Assembly (NCBI RefSeq): GCF_018977255.1
Contig: NW_024704742.1
Coordinates: 110,548,001-110,612,000, forward strand
Length of the DNA stretch: 64,000 bases
DNA from: Callorhinchus milii
Lineage: Eukaryota
Direction of reading: 5' to 3'
Shown here: positions 2,591 to 57,773 of the stretch, piece after piece
Numbering within the stretch: position 1 is the first letter of the stretch
Layout: each line of letters opens with the position of its first letter
Notes under the pieces: generated by a model
Databases searched by the model: none
What the model was told of the DNA's origin: nothing
The model's input: the letters and a program-made list of their open reading frames with translations, nothing else
Position numbers and translations under genes: made by a program

Positions 2591-2922
2591 ATGCAATACC
2601 TTCCTGCTAGTCAAAATATAACAATACTGTCAATACTACGATTGGAGAGTTAGCCATCACCTGCGCTAGGCAGGTAACGTTTAGTGGTGGCATGAATGGT
2701 CCTTTCCAGTCTCTGGTTTTTCCTATATTCTGATTCATATAACAGTTTTTTTTTGGTCAGCTGGGTTATTGAAACAATCAGAAACCTTTTACTGTGCTCA
2801 AGAGTATCCAAACCGAAGTACAGGGCGACTCTGTTATAATGCACCCTGACTTAGCATGGGACCGCAAATGGATTAGGATGGGTCATTTCTTGGAGGCACA
2901 AACACCAATTCGAAAAAAAACT

Positions 2923-3057
2923 GTTCTGACGAAGGGTCGTGGACTCAAAACGTTGACTCGCTTTCCTTTCTCCATAGATGCTGCCTGACCTGCTGCGTTT
3001 TCCCAGCGACTTCTGTTTTTGTTTCAGATTCCAGCATCTGCAGTATTTTGTGTTTTG
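2923..3057 (+). mobile_element. Penelope-like element terminal fragment with a degenerate minimal hammerhead motif
   Basis: gttCTGACGAagggtcgtggactcAAAAcgttgac then tccatagatgctgcctgacctgctg; homologous to 51312-51447 (minus). Confidence 0.7.
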
Positions 3058-3214
3058 ACCAATACGAAAAAAATGGGCTGATTGTCCTCCTACTTTGTCA
3101 TACATTTTTATAGGTCTGGGTAGTGTACAGTGGACCAGTGTCCTGCCCACAGCGCCTCAGTGTCACATTATATCCATGCAACACAGATGGTGTTTAGGAT
3201 ACACTTTGGCTTGG

Positions 3215-21024: not shown

Positions 21025-21342
21025 ATAAATAAATCCTTGCATTTGATATAGCGCTTTTCACGTCGGGAGGACGTCCCAAAGCGCTTCACAGAATATACTG
21101 TAAAGTGAATTGACTGTATATTTGTGGGCGAACGCGGCAGCCAATTGCGCACAGCAATGTCCCACAAACAGTCGTAGATTGAAAATGACCAATTTATTAT
21201 TGTTTTTGGTTTTGGAGGGATTATTATTAGGCTCTGTGTGGAGTAAGGAAACTTGCCCAAGGTTTCGCCCTCTGCCTGGAATTGAACTCAGGTCTCTCGC
21301 TTGCAAAGCGAGTGCTCTAACCACTGAGCTACAGGACTCCAC
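21025..21342 (-). mobile_element. Young tRNA-Ala-headed SINE (short subfamily) inserted in the L2 leader
   Basis: gtggagtcctgtagctcagtggttagagcactcgctttgcaagc head; TAGTT at 21020-21024 and 21343-21347. Confidence 0.92.
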
Positions 21343-21653
21343 TAGTTTTCAGCAGTGTGCGCGCGCAACAACAACAACAACAACAAAAAAAAATCCTCTG
21401 CGCCCCCCCCCCCCAGGGCTCAGAGCCCACCATGGTCCTGTTAGGTTGGCAGCCCCAGCCCATGGGATAATGTGTACATCCACCTGACCGCTCGCTCCCG
21501 GTCCCCGCGTGCGCAATATGGCTACCGCTATGACCCTCACCCCCTCACCCCCTCCCTCCCTCCTCCCTCCTCTCTACCCCCAAACCCTCCCCCTTTTGCA
21601 TCTCTCCCACTCTCTCCTCCTTTCTCTCCGTCCCTCTCGCCTTCTATCCCCAC

Positions 21654-24285
21654 TTGACCCTCCCACAACCTCCCTCTGTTCCAGCCTGGGAATCCTCCGC
21701 TGGGCTCACCGTGGCACTCGGTGTTGACTGTCCAGCAGCAGCCACACCGACTGCCCCATTCCCCACCACACTCAACAGCGACCCCGGACACAGACCCGGG
21801 GAGCCAACCTCTCCTCCCTTACCCCCATTCCCCCCACCCCTGCCTCACAACCGGGACCTCCCTCCCTCCCCACACACCCTTCTGTCAACCGCTCCATCCA
21901 CATCGGACTACAAAATGTCCGCTCCCTCTGTAACAAGGCCCTGGTCATCAACGATCTCATCCTTCCCCCTCACGGAGGCCACACCACCCGGCTACACCTC
22001 CCACCACATCCCTCGCCCCAACCGCCATGGCGGTGGTGTTGCCCTTATCTCAAGGACACCACTTGCCCTATCCCCCTACTCCTCTGGCTCTTTCCCCTCT
22101 TTTGAGCACCTCACCCTCTCCCACCCTTCCTTCCTCTCATTTAAAATCCTCCTCCTCTACCGGCCCCCTAAAGCCTCTCCCACCTTCATCTCTGATATCT
22201 CAACACTTCTCACATCTCTCTACCTCTGCTCTGATCGCCTTATCATCCTGGGCGACTTTAACCTGCACTTCACCCCCTCCTGCTCCATCTCCTCAGATTT
22301 CTCTTCCCTGCTCTCCTCGCTCAACCTCTCCCTCCACATCAACTCCCCCACTCACAGTCACGGCCACCCACTTGACTTGGTGATCACCCGGGGCCTCAGT
22401 GTCTCGGATGTCACCATCACCGATAAGGCCATCTCTGACCACCACTTCATTTCCTTCACCACATCCACCCCCCTCCCCACCTCCACCAGACCCACCACCA
22501 TCTTCTACCGCCCCTGGAAGAAGTTACCCCCTCAATCCCTAACCGCTGCCTTGGAGTCCTCTGAACTCCTCTCCCTCTGGCCTTCAACCCTCACCTTCCC
22601 CTCTTCTGCTCTCACCCTCCTCCACAACACCCTCTCCTCCACACTTGACACTCTTGCCCCTATCACCTCCCGTACTGTCTCCTACTCTCGCTCCTCCCCC
22701 GGTTCACCACCCACCTCCGCTCACTGAAGAGCCAGGTGCGGGCCGCTGAACGCACCTGGGTCAAATCTGGCCTAACGGTCCACCGACAAATCTGGCTGGA
22801 CCTCCTCAAAATCTACCGCTCCACTCTAGCCTCGGCCAAATCGTCCTTCTACTCCAGGATAATCCTGGAGGCGAAGGACAACCCCAGGCTACTGTTCTCT
22901 ACCACATCCCAACTCCTCCGTCCCCCCCGCCACCCTGCGCAGGTCATCTCCTCCAACCTTCACTGCGAGGAGATGCTGGATTTCCTTGAATCCAAGATCA
23001 AGGGAATCCGCTCCGCGGTCACTTCCCCTCCAACATCCACCCACCACCCACCCCTTCCCTCCCACACTCCGACTCCTACCCATCCTCCCCTACACACCTT
23101 CGTACCCGTTTCCCCATCCTCTGTCACCAAACTCATCCTATCCCTGAAACCTACCACCTGCTCCCTTGACCCCATCCCCACTCCACTCCTTATCTCCCAG
23201 CTCCACCTCCTTGCCCCACATATCACAGACATCGTCAACCTGTCCCTCTCCTCTGGCTCTATTCCCATTCCCTTAAAAACTGCCACCATCACTCCCACCT
23301 TAAAAAAACCCTCCCTTGATGCGTCGCAGCTATCAAGCTACCGGCCCATCTCCAACCTCCCCTTCCTATCCAAGGTCCTGGAACCAGTTGTCACCTCCCA
23401 GCTGCGCTCTTTCCTCTCCAACCATTCACTATTCGAACCCCTTCAATTGGGTTTCCGTGCTGCCCATAGCACAGAAACTGCCCTGGTCAAGGTCACCAAT
23501 GACACTCTGACCATCTGTGACCAGGGCTCTCTCTGCCTCCTCGTCCTCCTCGACCTATCGGCAGCATTCGATACGGTCGACCGTGCTATCCTCCTCCACC
23601 GCTTGTCCTCCCACCTAAACCTTCAAGGCCCTGTCCTTGAATGGTTTAGGTCATACCTCTCCCATCGTCTTCACTTTGTCTCCACAAATGTTTTTTCCTC
23701 CGGCCCCCGCACTGTCTCGTGCGGTGTCCCTCAAGGCTCTGTCCTCGGTCCCCTCCTCTTCACCCTCTATATGCTCCCCCTGGTGACATCATCCGCAGAC
23801 ATGGGGTTAACTTCCACATGTATGCGGATGACACCCAACTCTACCTTTCCTCCTCTATCCTCAACTCCACGACCACCGATGTCCTGACAGCCTGCCTGTC
23901 CGACATCGAGTCCTGGAAGAGAGATAACTTTCTTCAGCTCAACGTGCGCAAAACTGAGGCCCTCCTGATTGGCTCACGTCAGCGCCTCCGCACCTCAGGC
24001 GCTGACAGCATCAGCATCCAAGGCTGCACTCTCCACCTCTCAAAGCCAATCAGGAACCTTGGGGTTCTGTTCGACCCTGAGCTGTCCTTTCTCCCCCATA
24101 TCCGCACCACAACTGGCACCGCCTTCCATCACCTCCAGAATGTCGCCAGACTACGGCACTACCTCACCCCTCACGCTGCTGAAACTCTGGTCCACGCCTT
24201 TATCACCTCAAGGCTGGACTATGGGAACTCTCTCCTCGCCGGCCTTCCCGGCACCTCCCTCCACAAGCTGCAGGTCATTCATTAA
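21654..24285 (+). pseudogene. Disrupted L2 ORF2 (apurinic-like endonuclease + reverse transcriptase)
   Basis: [76 protein letters not shown]; spread over three frameshifted ORFs. Confidence 0.93.
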
Positions 24286-28304: not shown

Positions 28305-28614
28305 GTGGAGTCCTGTAGCTCAGTGGTTAGAGGACTCGCTTTGCAAGCGAGAGACCTGGGTTCGATTCCTGCCAGGGTGAAACCTTGGGCAAGTTTCCTT
28401 ACTCCATATGTCTGATAATAACCCCTCAAGAAAAAAAAACAACAATAAATTGGTAATTTCAATCCACGGCTGTTTGTGGGACACTGCTGTGAGCAATTGG
28501 CTGCCGCATTTCGCTCACAAATATACAGTCAATTCACTTTACAGTCTATTCTATGAAGCACTTTGAGACGTCTAGAAGACGTGAAAAGCGCTATATCAAA
28601 TGCAAGGATTATTA
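28305..28614 (+). mobile_element. Young tRNA-Ala-headed SINE (short subfamily)
   Basis: gtggagtcctgtagctcagtggttagag...gggttcgattcc...caaggattattat. Confidence 0.92.
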
Positions 28615-34479: not shown

Positions 34480-35255
34480 ATAATAATCCTTGCAGTTGAT
34501 ATAGCGCCTTATTACATTGTCAAGACACCTCAAAAGATGTCACAAGAAGTGTAGTGACTGTATATTTCTGGGAAAACGCAAATCCAATTTGCGTACATCG
34601 TTGTTCCACAAACAGCATTGAAGTGAATGACGTTTTTTTAATTCGGGCAATGATGGCCAGGATACTGGGAGAAACTCTCTTCTTTTATTGAAATAGTATT
34701 GTGAGATCTTTTACAAACACCGGGAAAAGCAGTCAGGGCCTTATTTAGGGTCTCATCTGAAGGGCCGCACCTCAACAATACAGAATAACCCCTTGCATGT
34801 GGTATTGCGCCTTATCATGTTTTTGAGACTTCTCCAAGAATACACAGAATATAATGTAAAGTAAATTGACTATATTTTATGGGCGAACTGCGGCAACCAA
34901 TTGCACACAGTAGTGTCCCACAAACAGTCGTGGATTGAAGTGACCAATTTATTATTATTATGTTTANTTTTTTGAAGGAATTATTACCCCCGGAAAAGCA
35001 ATCTGCCAATTGACTAACAACTGGGTTCCTACTAACTGCTAGGTAAACAGAAGCGTGTGGAGTAATTAAATTTGCCAAACATTTCGCCCTGCCGGGGATC
35101 AAACCCAGGTCTCTCGCGCGGCGAGTGCTTTAACTACTGAGCTACAGGACTCCACAATATTAGTCTAGATTGTGAGTTCAAAGTCCAAACATGGGGCTTG
35201 AATGCATAACTTTCTGACTCGGAGATGAAAATTTAACTAACTGAGCCAGGCTGAA
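34480..35255 (-). mobile_element. Deu-domain SINE with a long-subfamily SINE nested at ~34785-35155
   Basis: Deu tail and body 34480-34780, complete tRNA-Ala SINE, then Deu head ttgaatgcataactttctgactc...ctgagccagg. Confidence 0.8.
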
Positions 35256-38026: not shown

Positions 38027-38327
38027 CCTTGCATTTGATATTGCGCTTTTCACATCTTCTAGACGTCCCAAAGCGCTTCACAGAATATACTATAAAGTGA
38101 ATTGACTGTATATTTGTCGGAAACGCAGCAGCCAATTGCGCACAGCAGTGTCCCACAAACAGTTGTAGATTGAAAATGACCAATTTATTATTGTTTTTTG
38201 TTTTGGAGGAATTATTATTAGGCGTGTGGAGTAAGGAAACTTGCCCAAGATTTCGCCCTGCCTAAAATTGAACTCAGATCTCTCGCTTGCAAAGCAAGTG
38301 ATCTAACCACTGAGCTACAGGACTCCA
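37975..38327 (-). mobile_element. Young SINE (short subfamily) with expanded (TAA)~17 tail
   Basis: Full head ...aaccactgagctacaggactcca; tail microsatellite at 37975-38026. Confidence 0.92.
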
Positions 38328-39746: not shown

Positions 39747-40102
39747 AATAATAATCCCTGCATTTGATATAGCGCCTTATCACATCTTTCAGACGTCTCA
39801 AAGCGTTTCACAGAATATACTGTAAAGTGAATTGACTGTATATTTTGTGGGCGAGACACAGCAGCCAATTACACACAGCACTGTCCCACAAACAGTTGTG
39901 TATTGAAGTGACCTTTTTTTAAGGAATTATTACCGCCGGAAAAGCGGTCCACCAATCAACTAACAACCGGGTTCCTACTTACTACTAGGTAAACAGAGGC
40001 ATGCGGAGTAAGGAAACTTGTCTAACATTTCGCCCTGCCAGGAATCAAACCCAGGTCTTTCACTTGCAAGGCGAGTGCTCTAGCCACTGAGCTACAGGGC
40101 TC
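39747..40102 (-). mobile_element. Full-length tRNA-Ala-headed SINE, long subfamily
   Basis: Head, gcctctgtttacctagtagtaagtaggaacccgg central block, shared 3' half and tail. Confidence 0.9.
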
Positions 40103-44055: not shown

Positions 44056-44374
44056 AATAATAATAATAATAATCTTTGCATTTGATATAGCGCTATTCAC
44101 ATCGGGAGGACGTCCCAAAGCGCTTCACAGAAGACACTGTAAAGTGAATTGACTGTATATTTGTGGGCGAACGCGGCAGCCAATTGCGCACAGCAATGTC
44201 CCACAAACAGTCGGGGATTGAAAATGACCAATTTATTATTGGTTTTGGTTTTGGAGGGATTATTATTTGTCGTGTGGAGTAAGGAAACTTGCCCAAGGTT
44301 TCGCCCTGCCTGGAATTGAACTCAGGTCTCTCGCTTGCAAAGCGAGTGCTCTAACCACTGAGCTACAGGACTCC
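44056..44374 (-). mobile_element. Young SINE (short subfamily)
   Basis: Near identical to 21025-21342. Confidence 0.93.
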
Positions 44375-50700: not shown

Positions 50701-51311
50701 GCTTTGTGAAGGGCTATAACAACCTCAACTACAAAAGTCCCTCTATCTGATGCAACAGAAACATAAATAAGAAGACATTTTGAAATCATACTATTTATTA
50801 TAAACGTGCTATTTATTATAATCAAGTTTTACTCTATTTATGAACAAAGTAATCTTTCTTGCAATGGAATATAGATAACTATTCTTTTGGGGCTCATTTT
50901 ATAGAAATATATAATTTGAAACTTTCCAAGCAACAAAAAAATAAAATATTAGAATTTTCTGGATGATCAATGAGGCAAGTTGTTCAAATATCATCACAAA
51001 GAGACATTTGGAGATAAAATGTTATCAATCTTGTATCTTTGAATAACATGAAGTGTGTGTCCTGTTGAAATTATTCATAGAATCATAGAAATTTACAGTG
51101 CAGAAGGAGGCCATTCGGCCCATTAAGTCTGTACCAGCTCTCAGGGCAATTTGTGCTTTCAATCTCTTTTTACTTGGATTTTCCCCCCAGATATCAAATG
51201 ATCAGAAGCCTATATTGGTTTTTGGCTCTTCAAATTTATTTATGACTCCTCCTGAGTCACCTTGTTTGTTCCCCAGCTTGTCACAGCTGGAACCAACCAA
51301 CAAAAATAGAT

Positions 51312-51635
51312 TAAACGCAAAATGCTGCAGCTGCTGGAAATCTGAAACAAAAACAGAAGTCGCTGGGAACACTCAGCAGGTCAGGCAGCATCTATGGAGA
51401 AAGGAAAGTGAGCCAACGTTTCGGGTCCACGACCTTTCATCAGAGCTGGGGCATGTTGGGAGGAAGGGCAAGGAAGACAAAGGAGAATTTAGGGTAGAGG
51501 ACAGGGGATGATGGGTTAAAGAGGTGTTAATAATGCAAAACAAAGGGGGAATTCCAACCAAACTGGGGAATAGAGGTCTTAATAATGCAAAAAGGGTGGG
51601 GGGGTGGGGTAATTGGGGGCGGGGGGGGGGGGGGA
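51312..51635 (-). mobile_element. Penelope-like element terminal repeat fragment
   Basis: Homologous to 2923-3057 and extends further upstream through a pyrimidine-rich segment (minus strand). Confidence 0.7.
51411..51447 (-). ncRNA. Minimal type-I hammerhead ribozyme motif
   Basis: agct-CTGATGA-a-aggtc-gtg-gaccc-GAAA-cg-TT-ggct: intact core, stem II, palindromic AACGTT in place of stem III, stem I agct/ggct. Confidence 0.65.
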
Positions 51636-52329
51636 ATTAAGCTTGCCTAGAGAGCGGTACAGACTCAATGGGCCGAATGGCCTCTTTCTGCACTGTACAT
51701 TTTGGAAAAACTGAACCCAGGAAAATACCAAGCCCAACTGATCTAAATAGTTTTGCATTGTTGTGTTTCATCTTAACTTTTAAAAGCTCCAGTGAGATTT
51801 TCAGAGATTTCCTAACACAATAAGTAATCATTGTATACTTTGTAGGGAATTCAATCCCACTGGCCCTTTTACTTTACTTAGTTCATCCAACGCATGGAGA
51901 ATTTCAACCAGCACAGATGTTGGTCAGGCCAGAGTTTCATGAAGTCACTTACAATAGAGGAAGAAAGCAAGAGCCAGCCAGAAGATAGAAAGAAATTATG
52001 AAACAATAAGTTAAACAGGGAAACATAAAAGAGAGACTTAGAATGAATGGAGAATTGAGTGAGGGAACAAAATCAAACAAAAAATAAAAGGAAACAAGCA
52101 GAAGGAAACATAAAAAAGCTAAAACAATAAAAAACATTGAGGAAGCTAAAAGAGAGTGACAAGAGTGGCTGTAATACTTTATAGGATCATGTTCTTGTTG
52201 GTTAATCATTTCCAATTAGAGGTTATCTTTCTTAGAGGGAGGTAAGTGGGATTTCTTTGGAGTTGAGCTGACTCCAAGATGACGTGCTTGACAGCAGAAT
52301 GTCAGAATCGAGTTAACACTTTGCAGTCG

Positions 52330-57290: not shown

Positions 57291-57364
57291 AGGGCATGTT
57301 TCCATTGCAGAAAAGAAAGCATTCAATGAAGTTTGGATGTATAGTTCCCCTCCCATAGAAAATA

Positions 57365-57773
57365 TTCTCTAGAATATAGAAGAATTAGGGGTGGTCTTAT
57401 AGAAACATATAAGATTCTTATGGGGCTAGACAGTGTGAGACTGTTTCCCCTGGTAGGAGAATCCATAACTTGGGGTCACAGTGTTAAGATTAAGGGTCAG
57501 TCCTTTCGAACAGAGTTGAGGAAACACTTCTTCACTCAGAGGGTAGTGAATTTAAGGAATTCTCCACTCCAGAAGGCTGTAGATGCTCAGTCCTTGAACG
57601 TACTCAAGACTGAGATTGATAGATTTTCAAAGGATAGAAGGAATAAGGGATATGGGGATAAGGGGGGATGGAGTTAGGTTAGAAGATCAGCCATGATCTT
57701 ATTGAATGGCGGGGCAGGCTCAAGGGGCCGAATGATCTACTCCTGCTCCTAATTCCTATGTTCCTATGTTCCT
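57365..57773 (+). mobile_element. CR1 LINE 3' end with (TTCCTATG)n tail
   Basis: FRTELRKHFFTQRVVNL..NSPLQKAVDA..LKTEIDRF; ttcctatgttcctatgttcct. Confidence 0.92.

Follow-up and report, generated by a model that had tools for sequence, protein, structure and literature searches.

A minimal hammerhead motif in Callorhinchus milii, most likely inert, at the end of an abundant repeat of probable Penelope-like origin

A hammerhead motif with a nearly vanished third helix raises two questions at this locus, namely what kind of sequence carries it and whether its RNA would still cleave. The motif lies on the minus strand at positions 51411–51447 of the window, the 64,000-nt stretch of Callorhinchus milii contig NW_024704742.1 that we analyzed, and is referred to here as the 51k copy. 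Its letters and coordinates were reproduced exactly as originally predicted. Helix I is formed by a 5′ arm at 51447–51444 and a 3′ arm at 51414–51411, with four base pairs (A-U, G-C, C-G and U·G); C3 to A9 occupy 51443–51437 and are followed by an additional A at 51436; helix II consists of 51435–51431 and 51427–51423 around a 3-nt GUG loop; G12 to A15.1 lie at 51422–51419, and C15.2, G16.2, U16.1 and U17 at 51418–51415, which places the predicted cut at 51415|51414. The palindrome AACGUU, described earlier as all that is left of stem III, was located at 51420–51415, where C51418 and G51417 form the 15.2/16.2 pairing with no loop 3.

All of the single-stranded core letters (C3 U4 G5 A6 N7 G8 A9, G12 A13 A14, A15.1, U16.1 and H17) are present in the 51k copy. 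The single additional base that characterizes minimal hammerheads (min-HHRs), placed between 9 and 10.1, is the A at 51436, and both helices, at 4 bp each, have the lengths expected of the class (3–5 bp for helix I and at least 4 bp for helix II). The exception is the pair 10.1–11.1 that closes helix II, which is an A·C mismatch (51435/51423) in place of the conserved G-C. The claim of an intact core thus holds for the single-stranded letters and fails for this pair, and the lower-case letters at helix II in the original prediction already hinted at the mismatch. Although G10.1-C11.1 is highly conserved in min-HHRs, it is outside the published descriptor; the family described below belongs to the class, and the 51k copy is a mutated member.

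Short motifs of this kind could resemble a hammerhead by chance inside an unrelated repeat, and several observations agree with that explanation. The loose pattern CUGANGA..GAAA has 8 matches in the window compared with 6.18 expected, a count reached by 29 of 100 shuffles and thus at chance level, and the other seven of the eight matches are without hammerhead helices. No hammerhead family is found among the 12 Rfam matches in the window at E≤5, presumably because the Rfam hammerhead models require a genuine helix III. The folding z-score is 0.38 with a minimum-energy fold that is not a hammerhead, which counts for little because the folding model omits the core's non-standard contacts. Against chance, however, the full descriptor (core, helix II of at least 4 bp, paired 15.2/16.2, UH and helix I of at least 3 bp) matches the 51k site and no other in the window, with at least one match in just 3 of 200 dinucleotide shuffles. 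Relatives of the repeat keep both helices with changed pairs, and the place of the motif in the repeat, together with the repeat's termini, agrees with the ends of Penelope-like elements (PLEs), as described below. We find an accidental likeness hardly credible.

Judged by its architecture, as seen in the letters, the descriptor match and the consensus published in Fig. S3 of PMC4209133, the motif at 51411–51447 (minus strand) is to be grouped with the min-HHRs of metazoan PLEs, a known class (Cervera and de la Peña 2014), and so agrees with the initial assignment as a minimal type-I hammerhead of Penelope kind. Like the min-HHRs of metazoan PLE pseudo-LTRs, the 51k motif combines a CUGANGA core and one extra base with a short helix I, has a helix III consisting of paired 15.2/16.2 (C-G) followed by U16.1-H17, and comes from a family with thousands of dispersed, mostly solo copies and some opposite-strand pairs (PMC4209133). 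Its C-G-U-H end occurs in 24 of the 44 rows of Fig. S3 examined, 12 of them with CGUU. The 51k copy differs from the same class in missing the conserved G10.1-C11.1 pair, and helix II is 5 bp long in its relatives, whereas it spans 7–8 bp in S. mansoni (PMC4209133). Two supplementary files of that paper, file 1 not included, hold no shark, Callorhinchus, Leucoraja or Squalus entry.

The motif is part of a longer repeat, of which two copies had been noted in the window. These were confirmed at 51313–51444 and 2925–3055 with 90.9% identity over 132 nt, and a two-copy nhmmer profile detected no third copy in the window (next match E 0.48). The second copy of the repeat end unit, at 2921–3057 on the plus strand, begins 5 nt ahead of its C3 and retains G10.1-C11.1 and a U-A pair in helix I; it also has a G12A change and, within helix II, a G·U. 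With G12 changed to A, cleavage is reportedly more than 500-fold slower in minimal hammerheads and slower by a factor of about one million in full-length ones (PMC2553840). Immediately around this copy is a 16-nt target-site duplication (2904–2919 on the left and 3058–3073 on the right, plus strand) with 1 mismatch between its halves, whereas 2,000 random spans gave no such repeat longer than 11 nt. Because a 16-nt direct repeat flanks it and it starts 5 nt before C3, the second copy is a discrete retroposed insertion. For the 51k copy, no target-site duplication above background was found (best 7 nt). With 48 kb between them and opposite orientations, the two copies are unable to dimerize in one transcript.

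The repeat had also been described as a dispersed family, which the public sequencing runs bear out. We aligned four of the 24 runs listed to 51230–51600 at 80% likeness and obtained 13,458, 27,392 and 4,675 contigs plus 8,318 RNA reads, which possibly come from other species than that of the window and none of which spans the 51k locus. The 3′ ends of the aligned records pile up at 51313 in all four runs (340, 769, 129 and 760 records), and second 3′ termini occur at 51343–51349, 30–36 nt inside the first (24–577 records per row); beyond the termini, the copies continue into unrelated A/T-rich flanks. At the other end, 5′ ends pile up at 51444 with 165, 276 and 289 records in runs X1, X4 and X21, among the rows listed. 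Loose letters at 51444 follow the helix I arm for about 4 bases and then diverge (agreement 0.36–0.44). Alignment clipping at the mismatched position 51445 could be part of this pile, and the second copy, bounded by its target-site duplication, starts at the same place. Among the 15 joints listed, 13 switch strand, 8 of these being anchored at 51444/51448, and each joint is supported by 1–6 contigs per run. Within 1 kb of either window copy, an inverted partner is absent.

The same alignments suggest how the helices have fared in the relatives. In helix I, the 51k copy has C51445-G51413 where the second copy has U-A, so that both sides have changed. U at 51445 makes up 97–99% and A at 51413 makes up 94–99% of the aligned run depth, and the helix I letters of the 51k copy account for 1–6% of it at each position. 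A covariation test on the two rows was not significant (246 of 500 shuffles reach the value), and the compensated change may mark a subfamily or may be two hits that coincided by chance. In helix II, G at 10.1 makes up 77–93% of the aligned depth and restores the 10.1–11.1 pair, with an A-U version in one loose-end consensus of run X1. Both helices are thus kept in the family, with one pair lost in the 51k copy.

On the minus strand, the common end unit of the repeat comprises about 136 nt (51313–51448), that is, the hammerhead and about 100 nt downstream of it to the main 3′ terminus at 51313. The 3′ loose-end piles define an optional tail of 30–36 nt (51313–51349) between the termini at 51343–51349 and 51313. 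Translation of 51314–51391 gives an ATG followed by 26 open codons that reach the terminus, a frame that may be the start of the parent element's ORF. A pyrimidine tract and UAG precede the ATG at 51391 and resemble a 3′ splice site. A CUCAC resembling a branch point lies partly within the 3′ arm of helix I and is followed by the pyrimidine tract, UAG and ATG (51412–51389), and a second acceptor-like site of the repeat ends at 51342; introns within the pLTR are frequent among PLEs. Upstream of the hammerhead, a pyrimidine-rich part extends over 51449–51640 with an approximate 5′ edge. It is repetitive in all four runs up to 51593, which is the edge of the aligned stretch, so that the repetitiveness extends at least that far. 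Contig pieces 15, 20, 21 and 22 bridge this part to the hammerhead, no further copy of it was found in the window, and it is probably the body of the pseudo-LTR. Relatives have 30–40 extra letters at 51461–51465 that are absent from the 51k copy, which in turn has a short internal duplication at about 51592–51520.

The sense peptide of the ATG frame has no protein homolog (3 candidates, none at E≤10). An antisense frame of the repeat matches 2 of 81 candidates, both of them Callorhinchus milii UniRef proteins, within residues ~130–160 of P0001 (Ig-like) and ~375–405 of P0002 (golgin A1), and the antisense repeat stretch in these proteins is probably a gene-model error or an exonized repeat. 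Because of these two matches the repeat family can be placed in cartilaginous fishes, and it would extend the known class of PLE min-HHRs to them. Our literature search found no paper on the family, with the qualification that 10.64898/2026.07.22.740005 surveyed one chondrichthyan and its supplements may name it. In prokaryotic and viral collections there were no true relatives of the repeat: pattern scans of viral contigs and a first scan of metagenomes gave 0 loci each, and 12 metagenome and 7 genome loci returned by a shorter pattern were rejected as chance, with likeness spanning just 19–29 nt around the pattern.

The structure of the repeat's end is what ties the family to PLEs. In accounts of EN+ PLE ends (PAc Poseidon of Anolis, PMC11167929; A. 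vaga Penelope, PMC3846280; 10.1101/2021.04.23.441226), we find the same hammerhead near the pLTR/ORF junction, the same combination of tail, 5′ truncation and inverted head-to-head partner, and the same A/T-rich targets, target-site duplications and first ORF codons inside the end piece. A tail of 30–40 bp is known at PLE insertion ends (PMC11167929, PMC3846280), and the termini at 51313 and 51343–51349 delimit an optional one here. The inverted 5′-truncated partner is seen in the joints of relatives, not at the two window copies; the target-site duplication is seen at the second copy, and the A/T-rich target at the loose ends. There are also differences in detail. The ATG of the 51k copy follows the cut site by 23 nt, the order in PAc being the reverse, with the cut 26 nt past the start codon (PMC11167929), and the target-site duplication of the second copy measures 16 bp in contrast to 8–10 bp in A. 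vaga Penelope (PMC3846280). The 26 codons from 51391 recall the A. vaga pLTR, which holds 12 codons with a tail extending them to 22 (PMC3846280).

EN+ PLEs carry, between two direct pseudo-LTRs, a single ORF with a telomerase-like RT and a GIY-YIG endonuclease, but none could be tied to the 51k family here. The suggested link to a PLE RT/GIY-YIG ORF was not found among the 330 stop-free frames of at least 55 aa in the window (Pfam), as expected for a truncated copy, and the suggested tandem array is absent at either copy; the only RT of the window belongs to an APE-type LINE at 21.5–24.3 kb. PLE parentage is therefore inferred from four insertion hallmarks and the motif, not from an ORF. Weighing against it are this lack of a PLE domain in the window frames, the ATG-frame peptide without a homolog and the lack of a target-site duplication and of an inverted partner within 1 kb at the 51k copy; a course of plain decay would, in addition, leave the compensated helix I pair of this copy unexplained. 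Taking the evidence together, we hold with good confidence that the 51k repeat is the 3′ pseudo-LTR end of a 5′-truncated PLE insertion carrying its family's minimal hammerhead, now most likely inert.

The sharp 5′ boundary could also be read in another way, in which the unit of about 136 nt would be a non-autonomous mini-element (SINE-like or a monomeric retrozyme) whose own start lies at helix I and which is mobilized in trans by a PLE. The pile of 5′ ends at 51444, with flanks unrelated after about 4 letters, the start of the duplication-flanked second copy 5 nt before C3, and the proposal that retrozymes are PLE derivatives all speak for such an element. Non-LTR retrozymes, as described in PMC7229834 and 10.64898/2026.07.22.740005, are similar in their type-I hammerhead, non-coding sequence, kinship with PLE pLTRs and presence in one chondrichthyan genome. 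Yet retrozymes form tandem units and circular RNAs with mostly canonical hammerheads, in contrast to the solo minimal motif of the 51k copy. No tandem arrangement of 150–450 bp units, the mark of retrozymes, exists at either copy (16 TRF rows), nor is there a head-to-tail joint among the 15 joints listed. Moreover, the 51k copy and several contigs continue past helix I into the common upstream pyrimidine-rich part. We consider a separate mini-element unlikely and retain the truncated PLE insertion as the preferred reading.

As for activity, the proposal of a potential self-cleaving RNA was not upheld for the 51k copy. It is solo, has A·C at 10.1–11.1 and is not predicted to fold in its native context, while its sole relative in the window is 48 kb off, on the other strand, and carries G12A. 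A mismatch at 10.1–11.1 would be expected to slow hammerhead cleavage; no measured effect of it was found in the one review searched. Being solo with a broken 10.1–11.1 pair, the 51k copy is most likely inert. Solo min-HHRs showed no cleavage and dimers low cleavage in published experiments (Cervera and de la Peña 2014, PMC4209133); the PAc hammerhead cut only with protein present, insertion used uncut RNA, and the cut site was not the end point of any RNA-seq read (PMC11167929). The one raw RNA run aligned to the repeat (27% of it read), a fragmented poly(A) single-cell library possibly of another species, has both orientations in equal share (48.5% versus 51.5%) and no pile-up of starts or ends, and carries no weight for or against cleavage.

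A working ribozyme kept by the host, cutting a transcript at 51415|51414, would agree with the complete single-stranded core letters and with the compensated double change in helix I, which is rare among relatives (1–6% of aligned depth per position). However, the A·C mismatch and the missing dimer partner stand against it, and so do the folding predictions: pairing probabilities in a 49-nt piece are 0.13–0.16 for helix I and 0.67–0.68 for helix II, both helices fall to about 0 in three native contexts of 121–288 nt, and two copies are predicted to co-fold into something other than a double hammerhead, with a palindrome duplex of only −3.5 kcal/mol. The non-standard contacts of the core are left out of these models as well. 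The remaining positions drift as in any repeat copy, and no host exon was detected nearby (Pfam, 330 frames). We judge a host-kept ribozyme very unlikely.

If the 51k repeat is a truncated PLE insertion as we propose, the parent element's GIY-YIG endonuclease would have nicked A/T-rich DNA, and its RT would have started at the tail, either at 51313 or at the inner site 51343–51349. A PLE protein is known to start reverse transcription at either of two RNA sites, which yields an optional tail (PMC11167929). The RT would then read through the hammerhead on uncut RNA of the element and in most cases come to a stop at helix I or just ahead of it; an inverted partner would sometimes be added during insertion. 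The family fits such insertion from uncut RNA because its copies begin upstream of the hammerhead and contain it in full. In tandem transcripts of the parent, the hammerhead may cleave as a dimer or with the help of protein; the solo 51k copy would have mutated since insertion, acquiring the A·C at 10.1–11.1, and is most likely inert, with any transcription of it being passive read-through.

The 5′ ends of genomic copies fall at the 5′ arm of helix I (about 51444–51448), not at the cut site 51414, and the inverted partners are anchored there too. We offer, quite tentatively, the idea that in this family the folded hammerhead serves as a structural cue for insertion and not as a cutter, such that the RT stalls at helix I and the cDNA folds back through the complement of helix I and self-primes. 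That PLEs self-prime at inverted junctions is a proposal already in the literature (PMC3846280). Given many thousands of junctions per genome, comparing how many 5′ ends fall at the cut site and how many at helix I would show directly whether PLE min-HHRs cleave in vivo. A single worn leftover of a very abundant repeat, such as the 51k copy, is of little weight; since in published work cleavage in vitro was low and insertion used RNA that had not been cut, the many sharp junctions of the family could help to settle the role of PLE hammerheads.

Other repeats surround the locus. Two LINE 3′-end fragments of about 60 nt, 90% identical and inverted relative to each other (51075–51149 on the minus and 51643–51702 on the plus strand), flank the hammerhead-bearing repeat about 500 bp apart, one of them with a short tandem tail end; we take them to be CR1-like. 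A motif related to these 3′ ends comes after an ORF fragment at 57345–57734. The LINE with AP endonuclease and RT domains (21534–24282, plus strand), presumably L2-like, is frameshifted, and shorter fragments of it lie at about 20.4–21.3 kb, 36.6–37.6 kb and 44.5–45.0 kb. Finally, tRNA-Ala(TGC)-like heads at 21267–21337, 28309–28380, 35084–35151, 38254–38323, 40030–40101 and 44302–44371 were rejected as true tRNA genes, as they have a common downstream body and instead form a tRNA-derived SINE family.
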